DNA from: a virus
Taxonomy: Duplodnaviria > Caudoviricetes
DNA: 45,381 nt
Virus record (IMG/VR): IMGVR_UViG_3300037589_000199
Span: 1-45,381 of that record
Strand: one strand, 5' to 3'
The notes beneath the pieces were generated by a model. That model was not told where the DNA came from. It did no database searches and was given only the letters and a program-made list of their open reading frames with translations. A program made the position numbers and the translations under genes. Shown here in pieces: positions 14,068 to 43,672 of the stretch (position 1 is the stretch's first letter; each line of letters begins with the position of its first letter).

Positions 14068-14529
14068 ATGAAAGAGCAAACTAAAAGTAAAGTGATGGAA
14101 GTAAGCAAAACAAAAGAACAGCCTAAAAAGTCAGACAAGCCAACCATAACACAAACCAATGAAGTAGAAACACTAAAAAAGGAAATCGAAAAATTAAAAA
14201 GCCAATTGGACAACCAACCCGAAAGCTTAGAAGAAAAGATAAAATTTTTCCAACAAAAACAAGAAATGATAAAACGCCTCAGACTTCTAAATGACTATGC
14301 CGAAAACCTTTTGAATGTTCAGGAACAAATTAATGAATCTTTAAAAGAAAACGACGTCTTTTTATCAGATCATTTTCAATTAAAAATCCAATACAAACAA
14401 AATTCTTATGGTTCCCCAAAAGATGTTTTAACCATTGCCCACCCCAAATTAATTGGAGATGTTTTAGGCTTCGCCATTGGTAAAATTCAGGACAAAAGAA
14501 CAGAAATTCAAAACCAAATCAATGCCTAA
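14068..14529 (+). CDS. Coiled-coil hypothetical protein, first gene of ArdC/RadC cassette
   Basis: 153 aa ORF with A-rich leader. Confidence 0.8.
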   Translation: MKEQTKSKVMEVSKTKEQPKKSDKPTITQTNEVETLKKEIEKLKSQLDNQPESLEEKIKFFQQKQEMIKRLRLLNDYAENLLNVQEQINESLKENDVFLSDHFQLKIQYKQNSYGSPKDVLTIAHPKLIGDVLGFAIGKIQDKRTEIQNQINA

Positions 14530-14530
14530 A

Positions 14531-15013
14531 ATGGAGAAACCACAAAACCCAAAAAGAGCTGAATTAATAGCTTTAAGCAACGAAGCCAAGGAACTCAGGG
14601 AAACGATGGAAGAAGCATCAGAAACCGAAAATGAAGCCCTTTTTTGGGCTTCTAAAACCATCAACTATATGTTGCTAAACCATATGTATAATACTGATGG
14701 AGCTACAGAGTTTAATACCTTCAAACAATGGAAGGAACAAGGAGCAACAGTAAAAAAGGGATCCAAAGCATTTTTGGTATGGGGTCAACCCATCTATAAA
14801 AAAAATGACGAGGATAAGGAAGAAGAAAACCCAAATGACCCCGAGGAAGAATATAAATATTTTCCGCTTTGCTACTTGTTTTCCGATAAGCAGGTAATTA
14901 CGGCCGAAGAGCTAAGCCAGGAGCGAGAAGTAACCAAAAAAGAAAAGGTTTCAAAAGCCCAAGAACCAACAGAAAAATTTTTCAATTCCGTTAAACTAGA
15001 TATTGTATTATAA
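14531..15013 (+). CDS. ArdC-like N-terminal ssDNA-binding domain protein (antirestriction-like)
   Basis: FNTFKQWKEQGATVKKGSKAFLVW...YLFSDKQV motif; lacks the ArdC metalloprotease domain; start at 14531 or 14522. Confidence 0.8.
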   Translation: MEKPQNPKRAELIALSNEAKELRETMEEASETENEALFWASKTINYMLLNHMYNTDGATEFNTFKQWKEQGATVKKGSKAFLVWGQPIYKKNDEDKEEENPNDPEEEYKYFPLCYLFSDKQVITAEELSQEREVTKKEKVSKAQEPTEKFFNSVKLDIVL

Positions 15014-15657
15014 TGAAAACTTTAAGAGAACCTGCACAAACTTTATTAACATCTGGAAAAATGGCACTAAATGACAAAATGCTATTTTCTACAGCCTTTC
15101 AATTGCCAGACCAAACAGTAAATGAAATTTTTGATATGGCAAAAAATGAACTGGCAAATATTGCCAAACTTTCCTTTCATGACCTAATGAAGTTTAAAAA
15201 CATCGGAGCAAATAAAGCAGCTTCAATTGTGGCCAGCTTTGAGGTTGGGCGAAGAAGATATAAAATAGATCCTGCAAAAGCATTTAAAATTCAATGCTCA
15301 AATAATGCTTATGAATACATTAGACCATTTCTTTTAGATGAACAACAGGAGCATTTTTATATTCTAATGCTTAACAGGGCAAACAGGGTAATAAATCACA
15401 AGCTTATAAGTTCCGGAGGTACAGCGGCAACCGTGGTAGATTCCAAGCTAATTTTTAAATCTGCTATTGAGAACTATTCACAGGCCATTATATTAATTCA
15501 TAACCACCCAAGCGAAAATTTAAAACCTTCACAGGCTGATATTGCGATCACAAAAAAACTTGTAAATATAGGCAAGGAATTGGAAATGCCCGTTTTGGAC
15601 CATCTAATTTTTGCCAATAGTGGCTATTACTCTTTTGCCGATAATGGATTAATTTAA
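15013..15657 (+). CDS. radC: RadC/JAB-domain protein
   Basis: HhH (IGANKA), E...HNHPS...S.AD JAB motif, VLDHLI, YYSFAD. Confidence 0.92.
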   Translation: MKTLREPAQTLLTSGKMALNDKMLFSTAFQLPDQTVNEIFDMAKNELANIAKLSFHDLMKFKNIGANKAASIVASFEVGRRRYKIDPAKAFKIQCSNNAYEYIRPFLLDEQQEHFYILMLNRANRVINHKLISSGGTAATVVDSKLIFKSAIENYSQAIILIHNHPSENLKPSQADIAITKKLVNIGKELEMPVLDHLIFANSGYYSFADNGLI

Positions 15658-21115: not shown

Positions 21116-21691
21116 ATGCTAACAGAAGAACAGAAAACAAAATTTTCATCCATGAGAGTGGAAATAATAAACCTTAACATTTTAGCGGGGTTTTATATAA
21201 GAAAACTAAATCGTTTTAATTATATCACGCAAAATACTTCCAGACATTTTATGCTTGAAGAACTTACAGCATTAAGATATATGGAAAACGGAATAATCCT
21301 TCACTTAATCAACCTTGATGATAAAAGCTCTGAATATTCATTTCGGAAAATATTAATAGAACTCAACAAAATTCATTGTGAGCAAAAAAAATTAAAAAAC
21401 CTCCAAAAACTCCTTAAAAACTATCGAGCTGAACTTTTAACCCTCAAGGATAAACACAGAAATAAACACATTGCCCACCTAAATTATATAAAGGACAAAA
21501 AATTTGATGAATTTTTAAACTATGACAATTATTTAAAACCTATGATTTCTAATGCCAACCAAATTGGAGATGAAATCTGGGGTAAACGAATCGAGTATCG
21601 TTTTAAATTAGGTAGTTTTGAAGGAATAATCAATTTCAGGGATATTTTTGAATTTTCAAAAGTTAATTATAGTGCAGAAAATGATTTTTGA
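21116..21691 (+). CDS. HEPN (AbiU2-like) domain moron, candidate anti-phage RNase
   Basis: RNKHIAH Rx5H motif; AT-rich; opposite strand; TACATTTG -7 box at 21077-21084. Confidence 0.65.
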   Translation: MLTEEQKTKFSSMRVEIINLNILAGFYIRKLNRFNYITQNTSRHFMLEELTALRYMENGIILHLINLDDKSSEYSFRKILIELNKIHCEQKKLKNLQKLLKNYRAELLTLKDKHRNKHIAHLNYIKDKKFDEFLNYDNYLKPMISNANQIGDEIWGKRIEYRFKLGSFEGIINFRDIFEFSKVNYSAENDF

Positions 21692-35235: not shown

Positions 35236-35796
35236 TTATTTAATAAGAATATCTTCCATTCCTCTTTCAATCTTCTCATTCCTGTAGTATGCTTTTCGCA
35301 CGAGCATATTACATCGCTGCTTTAGCAACTTCATCTCATCCCTATATTCTTTCTTTTTTAGAGTCTCATGGTCATGAAGTAAATTGGCAAGCTTCCTGGT
35401 TACAATGAAGGACTCAATGATATCCTTTTGTAACATCCCCAATTTTTTTCCCTTCAGGTAATAGCGATCAAAATCTATGTGAAAAAACACATCTAAAAGG
35501 TCATTGATCCTTACAATATCTTCTCTGGAATAGTATAAATAGTAATTGGGCGCATTTTTAAGACCATCTGAACGAGGGAGAGTCAATTGAACCGCACTAG
35601 GCAGGTTATTAGGTTTCTCGCTGGTATACCGAACGAAACTACAAAGCACCTTACCAAAATCACTGGCACGACCCACAGTATATATTCCGGAATCATCTTT
35701 TGGAAAAAGAAAATCAAAATATGCCAGCAATAAAGGCTTGGAGATGGTGAGCTGAATGTCCATTGTTTTTTTTAACAATTTAATCAATTCTCTCAT
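35236..35796 (-). CDS. Conserved phage protein; candidate late transcription regulator
   Basis: 186 aa at early/late junction; basic helical C-terminus; alternative start 35763; function inferred from position only. Confidence 0.6.
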   Translation of the reverse strand: MRELIKLLKKTMDIQLTISKPLLLAYFDFLFPKDDSGIYTVGRASDFGKVLCSFVRYTSEKPNNLPSAVQLTLPRSDGLKNAPNYYLYYSREDIVRINDLLDVFFHIDFDRYYLKGKKLGMLQKDIIESFIVTRKLANLLHDHETLKKKEYRDEMKLLKQRCNMLVRKAYYRNEKIERGMEDILIK

Positions 35797-35876
35797 TTAT
35801 CGCAATACTATCTCTTTTTGGGAAAATAATATTCAAAAGTTCAAAACAGACTAATATAAATTAAGCTAGAAAAATA

Positions 35877-36291
35877 TGTAACCCTGTATCCATGTAGCCT
35901 TTTGATTCTATTATCTTATTTTTCAGGAACTTACCAAGTTACATCTTCAATCATAAAAAGATATGGCCGTTACAGATTTTTGTAACCTGAAATTTGGCAT
36001 TTTTTGGTTACAAAAATTTTTGTAACCTATCACTTTTTATTACTAAAAATAATCATTGTTTGTAACCAAATATTTTGTTGATTTTCAGGAGTATTTATAT
36101 AGTTTTCATTCTTTAGTTACAGAGTTACAAAAATTTAGTGTAAATTAAGATTTTAATAGGGGAAGGAAAGGCAGAAAAGGCGGCGGAATATGGCCATGGC
36201 AAGAAAGTAGCGTCCCTCCCGGCTCCATGGAAAGTGGGATTTTTTTCTCTAGCCGGCCAAGATTTAGGTTATACCAAAAGCAAAGTGTAAC
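35877..36291. repeat. TGTAAC/GTTACA repeat cluster; candidate replication origin
   Basis: Ten copies in both orientations including perfect 22-bp palindrome GGTTACAAAAATTTTTGTAACC (36006-36027) in AT-rich non-coding DNA. Confidence 0.65.
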
Positions 36292-36480
36292 CTAAACTGG
36301 AGCCGTACGGGACCAGGTGTTTGATTATTTCGATTGGTAGGGAAATGGAATATTAAATTCACCGAAAAATTAAAATAAGATAAAACAATAATTCAATAAT
36401 AAATTTTATAATTAAAAAATCCCCATAAAGGAAACGAATAAAGTAAATCCTTTTTCCCAATTATAGTATAGCATTTAATA

Positions 36481-36921
36481 ATGGAAAACGCAGATATAGA
36501 CATCAAATACTCCAAAATACCTGAAACAGCCAAATACGCTTTAATTGTAATTATTAAAGGAATTAGTTCATTTCCATGGGTATTTTTCTTCGTTGGACTG
36601 CTATTGGCAAAAGAGATATTCTTTTATTGGTTTATATTTTTCCTGTTTGTAGAGGGACTTTTATTTGCTGCTCTCATTTACATACTTGTCCTAATAGTCA
36701 AGGCCTCACTAAAAACTGAATATGGTATTGAGCAAAAACACAACCCATATATTGAGTCAAAATCTGACTCGGTTTTAGAAGGCTACATGAAGAAGGCAAA
36801 AAGTGGTATTATTGGAAACATTGCATTTTATATATTCCTTATTGGCGCTCTTGTAGTCGTAAAATTTCTGGGCATTTTTGATGCATTCTTCACTCAAGTG
36901 TTTAATAGTATAGGAAATTAA
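36481..36921 (+). CDS. Membrane protein (cargo)
   Basis: 146 aa with about three hydrophobic helices. Confidence 0.75.
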   Translation: MENADIDIKYSKIPETAKYALIVIIKGISSFPWVFFFVGLLLAKEIFFYWFIFFLFVEGLLFAALIYILVLIVKASLKTEYGIEQKHNPYIESKSDSVLEGYMKKAKSGIIGNIAFYIFLIGALVVVKFLGIFDAFFTQVFNSIGN

Positions 36922-37355
36922 ATTTATCTATGGTAGGATCTAAAGAAAGTTCTAATTGGAAAAGAACTGAAATTAATTACTAAGTAAACAACAAAAAATT
37001 GAATGAAGGTATACAATTAAATTTCTTCAAGACCCGAGAAATTCCATAATCAAAAAATCAAAACTAAAGGTGTTTAGGTTATTGATAATTTTTCATCCTT
37101 CCACATTCCACTGGGGATCACACTCTATACTTTAAACCAAACTAGTTAATAATTTGACTCATAAATAAAAATAATTAAAAACCTATATACAAGAACAATC
37201 AAAATAATGAACATAGCTAAGGATTGGCAATAGACCTAAATATATGACACAAAATTACTTTCAAAGCTAATGAGGTGTTGCTTATTATAAAATCAGTATG
37301 ATTAATCAATTGAAAACCAGTATATTTTAGAAATATTAGCTAGAACTATTAAAAA

Positions 37356-37985
37356 ATGAAAAACTATTTACCTGTTATTAGAGATTTTAGTATTGCAGTA
37401 ATAATAGCAATTTTTACAGCGGAAAAAATCGTTATTTTAAATATAATATATCAGACTACAATCATTTCTCTTATTGCGGTAATAATATTCCTTATACTCA
37501 GAGTAATAAACAAACATTCCGGAAAATTGGAAATCCTTTCAATTATATATTCTCAAAGTATTATTCTTCCAATTCTTAAAGGAATATCAAATGGCAAAAT
37601 AAAAGATGTTTATAAACTATATATTGTCTTACCTGATAGTTTAAAATCTCTTCAAAATATTTCCAGTATAATTAGTACTTTCGAAATTTACAAGACCGAT
37701 AAGATTGAGGATAGGAATGTTTGGATAAATATAACCGAATTACCCAAAATAGGAAAAGTATTCATTGATACTCCAAGTATATGGATTAATGGTTTTAAAT
37801 TTTACAACTTAGAAAAAGAACTAAATCACGAATCGCTTCAAAAGGTTATGCAAAAAATGAACAAAGACATAAAATTATATTGTAAGAAAAAAACAAGAGA
37901 TGGTAATATTAAAGCACAAGTTCAATTTATTACTGCTGATGAGTTTTATAAGTTTTTTACAGAACAAACTAATTCTAAGGAGTAG
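37356..37985 (+). CDS. 2TM + divergent prokaryotic STING-like domain protein
   Basis: Two N-terminal TMs; LSIIYSQSIILP, KLYIVLPDSL, R, FIDTPS in the order and spacing of bacterial STING motifs. Confidence 0.5.
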   Translation: MKNYLPVIRDFSIAVIIAIFTAEKIVILNIIYQTTIISLIAVIIFLILRVINKHSGKLEILSIIYSQSIILPILKGISNGKIKDVYKLYIVLPDSLKSLQNISSIISTFEIYKTDKIEDRNVWINITELPKIGKVFIDTPSIWINGFKFYNLEKELNHESLQKVMQKMNKDIKLYCKKKTRDGNIKAQVQFITADEFYKFFTEQTNSKE

Positions 37986-38274
37986 ACAACCGTAAGCATA
38001 ACCTCACGGTGCACCTTTACCAGAACCGAACTTACGAGTCTCTTGTACCAACTCCAACCATAGCCTAGCCCTACGCTAAAATCCAGACCCAGCAGTTTAG
38101 CATTAAATATCCTGAGACTTCAGGATTTCACTGCATAGATCACTCCAAACTACTTATAAAAAACAGAGCATGCATGCCACTTGCTTCGCTTCGGGTAACG
38201 ACTCCCGCACGTAAAGGACTCTTACCCGTTGCAAAGGTCAACTTTTTGACCTATATTCATCATTCAAGGCACAC
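37977..38274 (-). mobile_element. Degenerate ORF-less group IIC intron remnant with both ends
   Basis: 5' end GTGTGCCTTGAATG after exon TTGT; decayed DV/DVI ending GTCTACTCCTT. Confidence 0.6.
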
Positions 38275-38404
38275 ACAAGGGCAATAGCAAATGCGGCTGA
38301 CTGCTTAAAAATGAAGAAATTACAACTAAATAAATTCGATCTGGCGGTCATAGAATCGGTTTCAAAACCCCGTACTTGCCATAGCCAGAGCCACTAGGTA
38401 CAAT
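38275..38404 (+). repeat. attC-like cassette recombination site (degenerate)
   Basis: Imperfect inverted arms 38280-38296/38370-38386 (13/17), then TAGGTA just before next ATG. Confidence 0.55.
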
Positions 38405-38406
38405 AG

Positions 38407-39174
38407 ATGAGTTACACTAAAAAACATAGTAAACACGGAGAACTCTATGGAGCGGTTTTAATTCTAGAAACGGAATTAAGAAGCTTTGTTGATTTCTTAG
38501 CTAAAGATTTTGTCGAAATTGCTATAAACGGAAAAACGAAAGATGGAACCAATATCAATTTTTCCGATTTAGACGAATTCATATCGTATTCCAATTTTGA
38601 AAAGAGAAAAATTGTTGAATTTGAATTATCATGCTCAAATGAGGAAAAATCCGTAGACATAAAATTTCAAAATGATAGATTTTTCTTCAAACCAAAGGTT
38701 ATATCTTACTATCTCAGGTATAACAATCAAAACTGGGGCTTCAAATTTGAAGATGACTTAAGACAAGAACTTAAAGAGTTTCGACCACATTATAGTTTTC
38801 TGACTTATCTGGATCTAAAAATGGGATTACCGCTATTATTAGTTGCTATTGCAATTCTATTCTTCTCCGTGGATTATCTTTTAAAAGTTGCTGGCTTAAC
38901 TGGCTTCACTAACGCTGACTATAATAATTCTGGAAGTAATAAATCTAATTGGATAGTTGGTGTTGCGTGGTGGATTCCCATTTACTTATCTGGTTATTTC
39001 ATCAATTTATTTAGGAACTATCTATTCCCTGTTCTATTCATTGCGACAGGTAAACAGGTTAAAGAATATCGAAAAAGGAGAAATATAGCTTATGTGATTT
39101 TTGGAGTGGTCCTATTGGGAATTGCTATTAATATATTATCTCATCTAATAACCAACGGCTACCTAATCGTGTAG
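38407..39174 (+). CDS. Cassette-borne protein: soluble N-domain + 3 C-terminal TM helices
   Basis: 255 aa ORF bounded by complementary TAGGTA/TACCTA core-like sites. Confidence 0.8.
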   Translation: MSYTKKHSKHGELYGAVLILETELRSFVDFLAKDFVEIAINGKTKDGTNINFSDLDEFISYSNFEKRKIVEFELSCSNEEKSVDIKFQNDRFFFKPKVISYYLRYNNQNWGFKFEDDLRQELKEFRPHYSFLTYLDLKMGLPLLLVAIAILFFSVDYLLKVAGLTGFTNADYNNSGSNKSNWIVGVAWWIPIYLSGYFINLFRNYLFPVLFIATGKQVKEYRKRRNIAYVIFGVVLLGIAINILSHLITNGYLIV

Positions 39175-39330
39175 ACGGCCCGTAAGATTCCTCTGGAGGG
39201 AAGTGTCTTACACAACGCCCTAAGTACAGGCCTCTTATACGGCGGTTCACCGAGTTATGGGTTGTGTTTTGAGTTAATAAGAAAGCATGAATTCATATCT
39301 ATTTCTTCTCAGGCGTGACAGTGTAACTAT
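39166..39330 (-). mobile_element. 5'-truncated group IIC intron: IEP C-terminal remnant + domains V/VI
   Basis: GAACCGCCGTATAAGAGGCCTGTACTTAGGGCGTTGTG DV-like; end GTCTACACGAT; preceded by IVTLSRLRRNRYEFMLSY*LKTQPITR* maturase-like tail. Confidence 0.75.
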
Positions 39331-39509
39331 TCAAGTCACAATTTAATAGGCATAAGACCGCAAAGGTTGTGATCTAGGGTTAACAGATATCCTACACTAT
39401 CAAAAAATCATAGTAGCCCTTACAGAAACGTATTGGCTGATGATGGAGATTGACAAAGTTAAATACTTCTTTAAAAGATATTAAATATGCGGATTAAAAC
39501 CTAAGAGTT

Positions 39510-40295
39510 ATGCTACAGATTGTAAAAAGACAAGCGTCTCCTAATGGGGCAAATAACCTTGACGATTTTATAGGTGGATTTTTAAAAGAACTGGATGAGT
39601 TAGATCCTAATACTCCCAAAAAAACTTTGGAGATTTGTCATGTTGGTAAATTCTTAATGTTATTAAATGCTAATTTACGGATCGATTCGATAATGGAAAA
39701 GCCAGATTTTATAATTAAATCTAGAAACAATAGTTTTATTGGATTGGAACATGAAATTCTTCCAGATCACTCACAAAAGAAAATTGAAGGAAGCTTTGAA
39801 GATATTGTTAAAATTGCTGAAAATAAATTTAAGGAGCGATTTCCTACCTTAAAGTATTTAGTAAACATCAGGATGAATACTAAAAAAAAACTTAATAAAA
39901 AAAACAAGATATTTAATGCAAACTCTATAGCAACCATCGTTGAAAAATATCTAATCCATGGCCAATTTGAAAGAAATGACCTAGTACATAGAATCTATTG
40001 CCAAGAAGATTCAAATTTAACGTTTAATAGCCTTCCATTTGGAGGCTTTATTAAAAAATCCTTAAAACCTGAACATTTGATTACTGCAATACTTAAAAAA
40101 GAACGTAAACGTCTAAATTACATCAAAAATACAGGCCTGAATCAACAATGGTTATTAATTGTTATAGGTAGCGCAGCAAAAAGCTCATACGAAATTCTCC
40201 AAAAATTTGATGAAAATCTTGAAATAAAATGTGGATTCAACCGGATTTTCATCTTGGAGGACTTCAATTCAAGACTGTTTGAACTTCAGCTATAA
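39510..40295 (+). CDS. PD-(D/E)xK-like nuclease-fold protein (cargo)
   Basis: EKPDFII...IGLEH motif, WLLIV, FNRIFIL. Confidence 0.55.
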   Translation: MLQIVKRQASPNGANNLDDFIGGFLKELDELDPNTPKKTLEICHVGKFLMLLNANLRIDSIMEKPDFIIKSRNNSFIGLEHEILPDHSQKKIEGSFEDIVKIAENKFKERFPTLKYLVNIRMNTKKKLNKKNKIFNANSIATIVEKYLIHGQFERNDLVHRIYCQEDSNLTFNSLPFGGFIKKSLKPEHLITAILKKERKRLNYIKNTGLNQQWLLIVIGSAAKSSYEILQKFDENLEIKCGFNRIFILEDFNSRLFELQL

Positions 40296-40320
40296 GGAAT
40301 CAAGCTTTCTTCAAAAGCAT

Positions 40321-40464
40321 TTAAACTCCTCCAGATAATAGAAAAACTGCAACTAGGGCAATTACCGCCAATAACACAGCCTGGAGAATGGCAAAGCTGG
40401 TAATAATAGCTAAGCCCAAAATTCTTCTTTCATACCTGGTAAGCTCTTTATCTTCTTTTTTCAT
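40321..40464 (-). CDS. 47-aa single-TM protein absent from ORF track
   Basis: MKKEDKELTRYERRILGLAIITSFAILQAVLLAVIALVAVFLLSGGV*, co-oriented after replication genes. Confidence 0.55.
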   Translation of the reverse strand: MKKEDKELTRYERRILGLAIITSFAILQAVLLAVIALVAVFLLSGGV

Positions 40465-40527
40465 TACTTTATGGGTTACAGGGTTACGGATATTTTATTG
40501 TTTTTTTGACTTGAAATACACGGAGGA

Positions 40528-40755
40528 TCAGCAGTTTTCGGCTATATTCTGAGAAGTTTGCAAATAAATTTTCCGCTGCTTTATCATCCTGATCAGCCAG
40601 AGTTTGTCTGTCTGATCTGAAATCACACGGGTAATTACTGCAGACTCGCCCTCCAGGAGTTGGAAGTAAACCAGCCCCTTTTTCCTAGTCTTGGTTTGCT
40701 TGTCAACAAACTCCTTTATCGACATTACCGGTTTTAATTTTAATGTTATATCCAT
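40528..40755 (-). CDS. Small phage protein
   Basis: 75 aa, 1 nt after primase stop. Confidence 0.7.
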   Translation of the reverse strand: MDITLKLKPVMSIKEFVDKQTKTRKKGLVYFQLLEGESAVITRVISDQTDKLWLIRMIKQRKIYLQTSQNIAENC

Positions 40756-40756
40756 C

Positions 40757-43672
40757 TTAGAAAGTAGCTAAATCTTCTTCATCTTCTGGTGCCAAACCTT
40801 CATTCGGAGAAGGTGGCATCACTACCTGATTGACAGCCCTATGATTAGCATCCTGACTATTTCCTGAACTGCTGACATATATCATTTCCACAGAGGTGGC
40901 CACACCATTTATCTGTTCTTTCCGGATTATTCTTCCGGATGAGTTTTTGAATTCCTCAGGGTCCAGCTCGTAGCCATAGAACCTGGCCCAAGCTTTAAGT
41001 GCTTTGGTAAATTTCTGTGAGGTCCATTTACTTGCAGTGGTTTTGCTATAGTCCTCAAAGGCATATTTCTTAACCACAAAATCATTCAGCCGGTCGGTAA
41101 AATAGGTATCAGCCCATTCATGAAAGGCCGGTCCCATTTCACTTAGTAGATTCCTTTTCTCCACATTCTCCATAGGTGGATCTATTTTGCCATGTTGCAT
41201 GTACAGCTGACAGCATTGAATCATAAAATTGTAAAAGTCATTCCATTCCTTTTCTGTATAGTCCGGCCCTAGGATATTCTTTCCAAACTCCTCCCTGGGA
41301 TTCCTACTTTCATTAAAATAGCCATCCTTATTTTGATGGTAATAGTCCGAAAATACGCAGTACAACACCCTACGAAGTACAGAACTATCTATATTCCTTA
41401 AGGGAAAATTTGAGCTGAATGCAAACTTAGGTGACTCTTCATAAGGGATCTCATAGGACTTGTTATTCTTGGGGTTGACGATCATATTTCCGGTGATGTC
41501 AGAGAAAAACACATCAAACTTCAAATACTGGTTGGCATCATCCACCAAGATGTAATCTGTATGAATAGTGACCCGGTCATACATGTGGGGATTTTCTGTC
41601 ATTTTGGGATCCCGGCCACGTAAAGTTACCGACTTCATAAAGCGTGACACAGATCCCATGGCTATAGATTTACCGGATCCTCCATGAGATTCTCCCTCAT
41701 CAGATATCCGATGATCCATAGTCCAAATAGCCCAGGGACGGGAAGGATCTTTATACCTGTGTAATAGATACCCTAACACATACATTTTATTAACCAAATG
41801 GTGCTTCTGTTCCATTATTTCGTCATGATTCAAATTAGGTCCTGCGATATTGAACAAATTTTCCTGCTTGTATTTTTTAATCTCCTCAGCTGGTTTACCG
41901 GCGAGCCTTTCTTCTAGTTCTTTTCTCCAGTGCGTCCGACTTGTATTGATCAAGAAATTAAAAAAGGTGTTGTCTTTCTTCAATACCTCTATGTCCCAGC
42001 GGCCATCTTTAGTTTGGGAAACTTTAAAATGTGGATCTTGTACTTTAAATCGATGGTCTATTACCTCATCATGCCAGACATATTTTTGCACTTCTCCAAG
42101 CTTATGAACCTTCACATGATCTTTATCGACTTCCACTGTCTTGTTGCCAAAAAAGAAAAATTGAGACTCCCTGTCAAAATCGGTAAAGTCCACTTCCGTC
42201 ATTGGTAGATTGGACATGGAGGCTTCTTTAAGTTGACTGCTTCTGTAGAAAACATCCCTTAATCCTTCATCTAAATGCCGTTCTTCAAGAAATTTATTTA
42301 CATACGTTTTTACTTCATTCACCTCAATTTCACGGACTATATTATCCTTGATCTGAATGAAAATATACCCTTGCTTTTCATTCTTATTTTCAAGCCTGTA
42401 GAATCCATTTTTGGTAAGGAAATTATAAAGCCTGGTGTTTTTTTCCTGGAACTTAGATTTCCAATTCCCTGCTTTGTCCACCCAATAAACTTCATCCCAG
42501 AACCTATAAGGTATAGCAGTGCGTACCAATTGCTTAAACTCGTAAGCACTGAAGCGCTTCAGGTAGTCCCTAACATCCTTGGAAGGATTACCCCTTTTGT
42601 CCGGAAATTCTTTTAATTTTTCAGGTAGTGTAATTGTATGTAGATCCAGGTGCTCCATGGCCAGCCGATGAGCTTCTCTTTTGCCTGTAAAATCTATATC
42701 CGGCATGTTCATTACTTTTTCAGCAATGGCCTGCAGCTTTTTAAAAAGCTTATCAGTAAGCTTTGCAGTTTCGGAATTTGGCCAGACTACCTGGTAACTG
42801 ATCATGGCCAAGTTCAAAGCATCAGACCCACCACTGCAGTATATGATTTCAGGTAGCATTTTTTTCTTTCTAGGCTTACTCCCTTCTTCCTGCTCTTCAA
42901 AATTGTCATCCTCTTGAATTTCCTCATAGGCAGTGTTACAAACAGATAGTCCATGTAAAAAGTCACTTTTGCGTTTGCCGTAGTACATAAACCTACGACT
43001 CTTATCAGGACTAAGTGGTTGATAAATTTTCTTGAAATCCCCTTCATCCCACATGAAAATTGGGTATTTATCTGTGGCCTCAATCGTGGTCACCTTCCGG
43101 TTTTTCACTATGGAGTAAGAAACAAGGGAGTAAAAATGATACCTACGAAAAATTTTATAAACCTTATCGGTATTTATTGCTGCAATTCCAGAACTGTCCC
43201 GAATTACTTTCCCTTCCTTATCTCTCATCACAGGGATGACCTTCTCTGCCAGAACAGTTCTTACCTCAAAATCTGTAAACTCATTCCTTACTTCAAAATA
43301 CCATTCTCCGTCATTCTCCTCTGCCCTTGCATCCCTACTTGTAATTTCTGGTTTTAAAATTTCAAAGTTGGTTTCTCCGGAAACATTATACCTTTCGGCA
43401 AGTACTTCAAGAGCTTCTTTAAAATCAAGCCCTTCTTCTTCCATGCAGACATGAATACCATTTTTTGGTTTTTGATCTCCCCCAAAATCCGTTACCACCC
43501 AATTGCCATCCTCCAGCTGCTTTAGTGTGGCACTGGCCGTTTTCTCACTTTCACGAACTTTAAATTTCTTTCCCTTTACTCCTACACAATTTTGAGCTTG
43601 TGGAAAATAATAAAGGATAATATTGAGACCACCATCGGTCGCTTCAAATATGTCTGCTTGGTTTATAAACAT
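40757..43672 (-). CDS. Primase-helicase (Toprim + P-loop NTPase)
   Basis: CSGGSDA...PDIDFTG Toprim, KDVRDY; GGSGKS Walker A, ILVDD Walker B, SSNF, RR. Confidence 0.85.
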   Translation of the reverse strand: MFINQADIFEATDGGLNIILYYFPQAQNCVGVKGKKFKVRESEKTASATLKQLEDGNWVVTDFGGDQKPKNGIHVCMEEEGLDFKEALEVLAERYNVSGETNFEILKPEITSRDARAEENDGEWYFEVRNEFTDFEVRTVLAEKVIPVMRDKEGKVIRDSSGIAAINTDKVYKIFRRYHFYSLVSYSIVKNRKVTTIEATDKYPIFMWDEGDFKKIYQPLSPDKSRRFMYYGKRKSDFLHGLSVCNTAYEEIQEDDNFEEQEEGSKPRKKKMLPEIIYCSGGSDALNLAMISYQVVWPNSETAKLTDKLFKKLQAIAEKVMNMPDIDFTGKREAHRLAMEHLDLHTITLPEKLKEFPDKRGNPSKDVRDYLKRFSAYEFKQLVRTAIPYRFWDEVYWVDKAGNWKSKFQEKNTRLYNFLTKNGFYRLENKNEKQGYIFIQIKDNIVREIEVNEVKTYVNKFLEERHLDEGLRDVFYRSSQLKEASMSNLPMTEVDFTDFDRESQFFFFGNKTVEVDKDHVKVHKLGEVQKYVWHDEVIDHRFKVQDPHFKVSQTKDGRWDIEVLKKDNTFFNFLINTSRTHWRKELEERLAGKPAEEIKKYKQENLFNIAGPNLNHDEIMEQKHHLVNKMYVLGYLLHRYKDPSRPWAIWTMDHRISDEGESHGGSGKSIAMGSVSRFMKSVTLRGRDPKMTENPHMYDRVTIHTDYILVDDANQYLKFDVFFSDITGNMIVNPKNNKSYEIPYEESPKFAFSSNFPLRNIDSSVLRRVLYCVFSDYYHQNKDGYFNESRNPREEFGKNILGPDYTEKEWNDFYNFMIQCCQLYMQHGKIDPPMENVEKRNLLSEMGPAFHEWADTYFTDRLNDFVVKKYAFEDYSKTTASKWTSQKFTKALKAWARFYGYELDPEEFKNSSGRIIRKEQINGVATSVEMIYVSSSGNSQDANHRAVNQVVMPPSPNEGLAPEDEEDLATF

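Follow-up and report, generated by a model that had tools for sequence, protein, structure and literature searches.

The locus described here is best read as a piece of a decayed integron-like array from Bacteroidota that carries two dead group IIC introns antisense in the R'' boxes of its sites, and that likely passed from a host into the cargo slot of a prophage (probability about 0.8). The window, meaning the whole 45,381-nt stretch analyzed, is a Bacteroidota prophage with minus-strand tail, holin, and head-protease genes. Its cargo consists of four plus-strand ORFs of low GC content (36481-40295), which lie between conserved genes 35236 and 40757 and run opposite in strand to the conserved phage genes around the slot (Table 1). 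No integron integrase is present, as an earlier sequence-only reading had noted; the window's own integrase (1-1266) is of the phage type. The main reading is anchored by the recovery of cassette ends in another genome, the identity and insertion point of the introns, the loss of pairing in DV, and the junction of the second intron remnant with an RM gene. The locus itself is a dead remnant made up of element types already known; the system to which it belongs is a variant, distinct from a standard integron, and its phage setting recurs. Loci compared with the window are given L numbers.

Table 1. Features of the cargo region, by position in the window
Feature	Position	Strand	Remarks
Conserved non-coding block with TGTAAC/GTTACA repeats	35780-36345	.	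Left flank of cargo slot; 70-73% identity to block in L040, L041, L101
Cargo ORF, 146 aa, hydrophobic	36481-36921	+	74% homologue within L044 array, behind GTT box and intron stub
Cargo ORF, 209 aa	37356-37985	+	End crosses split R'' box; stop inside remnant 1
Left R'' half, site 1 (AATTCTA); 3' exon for intron 1	37971-37977	+	Sequence; 3' exons of relatives
Intron remnant 1	37978-38274	-	5' ~200 nt joined to degenerate DV-DVI; lacks ~1,640 of 1,870 profile positions (deleted) and the triad
Decayed attC-like site	38275-38401	+	R'' right half (ACAAG); arms ~38280-38296 and ~38370-38386; R' = ACTAGGT at 38393-38399
Gene cassette, R' to R'' (TAGGTA...TACCTA), with ORF 38407-39174	38393-39165	+	Same ends, 668/773 nt identical, unrelated flanks in L100
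Intron remnant 2	39166-39330	-	Broken maturase tail, DV (CGC triad kept, pairing broken), DVI, and 3' end ACGAT; deletion of the 5' part
Last 38 codons of type ISP-like RM gene (Type_ISP_C, N6-methylase)	39356-39469	+	66% to end of 1072-aa gene in same slot of L040
Cargo ORF, 261 aa	39510-40295	+	Behind RM tail; 35 homologues, none with a family

The junctions are not artifacts of one assembly, because contigs of a second run, X3, cover 37844-38255, 38911-39248, and 39231-39898 with zero differences. A single contig of run X1, which may be the source of the stretch, spans all of it.

Intron remnants

A profile of 7 full-length relatives matches the window at 38274-38072 (E 1.6e-35), 39330-39166 (E 1.2e-23), and 38046-37980 (E 0.003); nothing else in the window scores under E 4. 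Since the first and last of these matches both fall in remnant 1, it represents a single intron that has lost its middle and kept both ends. A complete intron on a Chondrinema plasmid, in which ltrA is annotated, has a start that matches the 5' end of remnant 1 at 81%. The remnant's 5' junction on the minus strand is TTGT|GTGTG (38278-38275|38274), as previously proposed. The earlier description of remnant 2 likewise holds, with a 3' end of ACGAT|T at 39166 and a maturase tail (39327-39259) that matches at 74% over 23 aa with one stop inside. The CGC triad, a feature of DV in group IIC introns, survives only in remnant 2.

A covariance model of DV-DVI from 9 relatives finds 39248-39166 at 37.6 bits (E ~3e-7), where a DV match had been predicted near 39205-39248, and 38057-37977 at E ~0.02, with many broken pairs in both. 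On folding, DV-DVI of an intact relative reaches z -5.4 whereas the window remnants score z -0.55 and -0.73, no better than shuffles, so both remnants are considered dead. A functional group II intron has intact domains I-VI and a folding DV; the window copies have large deletions and neither property. An Rfam intron search of the window, suggested earlier as a check, gives no match at gathering or E <= 5. This null result is uninformative, and would wrongly speak against the introns, because Intron_gpII also misses the intact intron of L002. Exact searches for intron-end patterns returned 0 and 1 stretches, the one being unrelated.

Both window introns lie antisense in R'' behind a bottom-strand hairpin, which is the placement of IIC-attC introns and is also seen in relatives. 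Two consecutive cargo ORFs had been said to stop in the complement of GTCTAC, and GTAGAC at 37982 and 39171 does hold the TAG stops of ORFs 37356-37985 and 38407-39174. The second stop is correctly placed inside the intron, but it is reached only through a +1 frameshift: homologues of ORF 38407 stop at a TAA within R'' (ACCTAAC), and the window has one extra base just before R''. At the other end of remnant 2, the RM tail begins after ~25 nt and the gene is intact in the closest sisters, so a deletion likely joined the two. A single such deletion would have extended from within intron 2 as far as the end of the RM gene.

Parent intron lineage

By tests on the sequences of intact relatives, the parent element is a group IIC intron. 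The relatives' IEPs are class C RT/maturases of 426 aa with YADD and no En domain, and exceed the TIGR04416 cutoff. The best PDB matches of the parent IEP are 7UIM and GsI-IIC (325 and 315 bits), with LtrA and 6ME0 at 141 and 122. The relatives' DV has the CGC triad, DV and DVI are paired, and compensatory changes are found in 3 of 13 DV pairs. Intact relatives with ltrA occupy the same kind of attC-like site.

Among loci that were picked by similarity to the window, TGT precedes the intron at 20 of 22 distinct 5' junctions (CTGT 11, ATGT 5, TTGT 3, GTGT 1), T is the first base on the intron strand in all 17 of the relatives' 3' exons, and a hairpin sits just upstream of the 5' junction in 11 of 22 cases versus 1 of 440 shuffles. 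The target consensus of this Bacteroidota lineage is NTGT|T. The sequence-only reading had placed the introns at TTGT/T in attC; the antisense position in R'' stands, but the target has to be widened. A 2009 survey of IIC-attC intron targets by Quiroga and Centron may include Bacteroidota.

According to a tree of 16 IEP sequences with weak deep nodes and one row of deviant composition, the lineage is separate from proteobacterial IIC-attC introns: 6 Bacteroidota IEPs (2 of them grouped by IEP similarity, with the 5' junction unchecked) are set apart from 3 of enterobacterial integrons, and one clade is rejected (p-AU 0.0024). In L104 and L044, a second intron type (Rfam group-II-D1D4-7) occurs on the cassette strand beside antisense stubs, which suggests that two intron families are stacked at the same sites.

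The attC-like site and its cassette

The dyad upstream of ORF 38407 had been called attC-like, and a model of 12 sister sites matches 38275-38398 at E 4e-28, its sole match in the window. With 82-90% identity to sites that lie between short ORFs in many genomes, as the sequence-only reading had anticipated, the dyad is a decayed member of a widespread site family; a repeat search of 35700-40800 found no second copy. Parts of the cargo region match 90 of 301 family genomes and 18 of 18 of one genus, mostly through the dyad or intron ends. Decay is evident in R' (ACTAGGT versus GTTAGGT in relatives), in a bottom-strand stability bias that is present in 6 of 6 sister sites and reversed in the window copy, and in hairpin folding that is no better than shuffles. 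Flavo-1 was tried as an identity for the site and rejected: Rfam gives no match in L001 or L073, and the published alignment, in the accessible part of its source, looks different (PMC2864571).

TAGGTA at 38395 and TACCTA at 39160 had been proposed as the R' and R'' boxes of a cassette. This proposal is borne out by L100, where an 84% homologue of ORF 38407 starts with GTTAGGTA and ends with CACCTAAC (ACCTAAC end). The cassette ends are real, because the L100 homologue keeps them between unrelated flanks. There, the cassette is followed by an uninterrupted, intron-free hairpin of another site family. Four further homologues (L003-L006) are without cassette ends, so the 38407 family is not always a cassette.

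The 255-aa product of ORF 38407 has a predicted alpha/beta domain and three hydrophobic helices (model pLDDT 71). Its family recurs beside RM genes in the window, L115, and L005, a neighborhood that hints at a defense role. The sequence-only reading saw the captured array as a source of cargo or defense genes. Cargo is upheld; for defense, the searches were blank, with no Pfam or NCBIfam family and nothing under E 0.01 in PADLOC for the four cargo ORFs, and no PDB fold match at E <= 0.001 for the 38407 product. ORF 36481 is, from its homologue, probably a former cassette whose site is no longer present in the window. A homologue search with ORF 37356 returned only itself (1 of 614 candidates), and a candidate R' before this ORF was dropped as being at chance level (p 0.11). 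No cassette boxes were seen at ORF 39510.

Arrays in relatives and their recombinase

A 50-kb stretch of a Persicobacter plasmid (L073) carries 65 sites on one strand and 4 on the other, compared with 0 in 20 kb of shuffled sequence. When the five bases after GTT are compared with the five before the next AAC, R'/R'' complementarity is perfect (5/5) in 53 of 62 neighboring pairs, with a mean of 4.5 of 5 versus 2.0 (maximum 2.6) after shuffling. The bottom strand is more stable at 55 of the 65 sites, most spacers measure 2/4, 3/5, or 4/6 nt, and several ORFs recur within the array. AAC...GTT core boxes, with R' and R'' complementary across the cassette, are found in L073 and, by comparison with L100, in the window cassette. 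Extrahelical bases in the L box are a feature of attC; the one site family folded has a continuous stem with an asymmetric internal loop. The hairpin detector misses the window's decayed site, and its blanks show no absence. Arrays with intron stubs at many junctions occur in L044, L104, L105, and L107, and L044 also carries the 36481 homologue.

Co-oriented tyrosine recombinases head site arrays in L002, L062, L075, L077, and L078, with a bare GTT box after the recombinase in L002, L062, and L075. Their adjacency in five loci suggests that these enzymes act on the sites. None of 5 array-bearing genomes exceeds the TIGR02249 cutoff (219-220 bits versus 265). The best matches split at model positions 184/239 with ~18 aa between, and since the two blocks are ~37 residues closer than in the model, the IntI insertion is missing. 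Other TIGR02249 matches examined, such as that in L114, have no sites nearby. To judge from these features, the array system would work like an integron but falls outside the IntI integrons.

Cassette movement would proceed through bottom-strand hairpins recombined at G|TT, with a co-oriented host tyrosine recombinase as the putative catalyst. The introns would have retrohomed into NTGT|T beside the hairpins, separating R'' from the hairpin and thereby freezing the cassettes, and internal deletions and point changes would then have eroded introns and sites.

Two smaller observations concern array heads. On a 15-kb plasmid, L002:4983-8577 is a compact element made up of a recombinase, a GTT box, a GNAT cassette, and a site with an intact intron. 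The non-coding segment 37226-37345 of the window is 82% like a segment behind the bare GTT box at the array heads of L103 and L106.

The cargo slot in related prophages

The related prophage loci number 13, or 10 distinct ones once three duplicates are removed, and L043 covers part of the slot. Flanking genes are kept and the content between them varies. Closest relatives L040/L116 and L115 hold an intact RM gene in the slot (with Type_ISP_C and methylase domains in L040). Comparison with sister prophages had been recommended by the sequence-only reading. It supports a variable slot with attC-type sites, found in 2 of 10 related prophages (L115, L042; 3 of 11 counting the window), but reveals intron pieces in 0 of 13 related loci at E <= 0.05. 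L115 has a distant 38407 homologue behind the RM gene (probability 95.8), and a decayed site comes next (77% over 115 nt, E 2e-17). L042:11900-12800 is a three-unit chain with matching R'/R'' boxes and two hairpins that starts at a bare GTT, its small ORFs running opposite to site polarity. Further detector matches lie at L115 13713, L119/L121 17067, and L042 9507; single matches in L041/L118 and at 3440 in L115 were discarded as resembling phage coding sequence.

Prophage cargo hotspots carry RM and other defense genes. The slot resembles such hotspots in having variable genes on the opposite strand between conserved phage genes and, in the closest sisters, an RM gene; it differs from them in its content in the window, which includes attC-type cassettes and intron scars. 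Single-protein scans of viral_contigs returned no relatives, and no empty-site sister of this exact prophage is among the searched loci and viral_contigs. In Cyclobacterium sediminis, homologues of 38407 and 39510 have locus tags GCM10027284_09580 and 09600, whose closeness suggests the same neighborhood as in the window. A separate loss of the type ISP-like RM gene, independent of that in the window, is seen at L005:5447-5904, where an internal deletion fuses codons 1-98 with codons 998-1072; a 38407 homologue lies behind it.

Route of entry and alternative explanations

It is likely that related phages pick up host cassettes repeatedly. For the window itself, we lean toward entry by recombinase rather than block transfer, because the slot is occupied by different cassette-type units in other prophages of the family. 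The alternative keeps the anatomy of the preferred reading and differs only in the entry route: the array piece would have decayed in a host chromosome before one illegitimate or homologous recombination event carried it whole into the phage, with no recombinase acting on the phage. Chromosomal arrays of relatives are equally eroded and hold the 36481 homologue, a sibling of the 5' part of remnant 1 sits in another site in the same metagenomes, related prophage loci are free of intron pieces, and no attachment site is recognizable at the left end of the fragment. Against a single event, the slot in L115 and L042 contains different cassette-type units, and the L042 chain begins at a bare GTT. 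Block entry is a serious possibility at somewhat less than even odds.

A different proposal is that the intron stubs have been retained for the sake of outward promoters in their 5' ends, from which the next cassette would be transcribed. Such promoters are documented for proteobacterial IIC-attC introns in the accessible part of PMC3001079. Short 5' stubs do precede many cassette ORFs in relatives, but similarity at the 5' end was the basis for choosing these loci, 3' pieces are common too, and deletions that spare both flanking genes would retain both ends anyway. The Bacteroidota promoter motif is TAnnTTTG, and no exact copy occurs on the plus strand of 36000-40400. Retention for promoter activity is therefore unlikely.

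Remnant 1 could instead be a non-autonomous miniature intron mobilized in trans rather than a decay product, given that both ends fall within ~300 nt, that similar short two-ended forms occur in L029, L038, L039, L102, and L104, and that one internal insert is common to remnant 1 and the L044 stubs. However, the breakpoints of the short forms differ, which fits repeated independent decay, the DV triad and pairing are lost, and the domain I core is absent; a miniature intron is largely refuted and very improbable. In-place formation of the cassette between two flanking introns (the Leon and Roy model, as summarized in the accessible part of PMC7923331) would suit an ORF 38407 that is intron-flanked on both sides and has homologues without cassette ends, but is refuted for this ORF by the same cassette with mature ends at an intron-free site in L100, unless L100 derives from the window locus.

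Relation to known systems

In the accessible parts of the literature, IIC-attC introns are described with a TTGT/T target, truncated copies, and outward promoters (PMC3001079, PMC7923331, PMC8876359). As far as these sources extend, the introns of the decayed array resemble proteobacterial IIC-attC introns of the S.ma.I2 type in their class C maturase without an endonuclease domain, in their antisense position in R'' of a hairpin, and in the presence of truncated copies in arrays. Bacteroidota introns differ from them in target (NTGT|T versus mostly TTGT|T) and have 36-39% identity to integron-borne IEPs, and the window introns differ further in being dead and in a prophage.

Like integron arrays, CALINs, and SALINs, as portrayed in the accessible text, the Bacteroidota arrays have co-oriented short ORFs, R'/R'' complementarity, bottom-strand hairpins, and, in the window, no integrase nearby. 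On the same partial basis, they differ from integron arrays in their site spacers and G.T wobbles, from attC in the lack of a conserved single bulge in the one site family folded, and from IntI in a recombinase that is co-oriented with the array and without the IntI insertion. CALINs have been reported in phages, including one in a Polaribacter phage, in a paper whose accessible text does not contain the word intron (PMC9892861). Excerpts of other work describe cassette insertion at attG sites (bioRxiv 2022.09.11.507474), list Bacteroidota among integron-bearing phyla (PMC8618304, bioRxiv 2022.02.06.479319), and give Bacteroidota as an example after mentioning clades without integrons (bioRxiv 2024.07.02.601686). 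The accessible portions of PMC9723704, PMC5737381, and PMC2864571 contain nothing on these Bacteroidota sites, and a search of largely open-access literature for a Bacteroidota integron-like system found only general papers.

A broader proposal is tentative, at somewhat less than even odds: Bacteroidota may own an integron-like system in which a co-oriented tyrosine recombinase lacking the IntI insertion shuffles cassettes at hairpins of another geometry, so that IntI-based scans miss it. The system would load cassettes directly into the cargo slot of this prophage family, and an IIC intron lineage with a separate evolution would home into the sites and freeze the cassettes. If the recombinase works on the sites, integron-like shuffling in Bacteroidota is undercounted and the arrays are unmined collections of small adaptive genes; if the proposal is true, the prophage family serves as cassette shuttles between hosts. 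The locus links three mobile systems and offers testable parts, namely candidate recombinases, a large natural library of sites with matching cassette ends, intact introns with a defined target, and the prophage slot with its cassette-type units.

Additional observations in the prophages

The TGTAAC/GTTACA repeat cluster (35870-36140) is kept in sister prophages and also occurs in the non-prophage locus L101; it may be a replication origin or a regulatory block. A plus-strand island at 14068-15657, between the head and tail modules, carries ArdC N-terminal and RadC/JAB genes. The plus-strand ORF at 21116-21691 has a weak AbiU2/HEPN match (E 4e-4), and a similar-looking ORF is present in the L044 array. 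In a sister prophage, the slot holds a run of genes (L119:6624-9197) whose starts presumably resemble type IV CRISPR Csf proteins.
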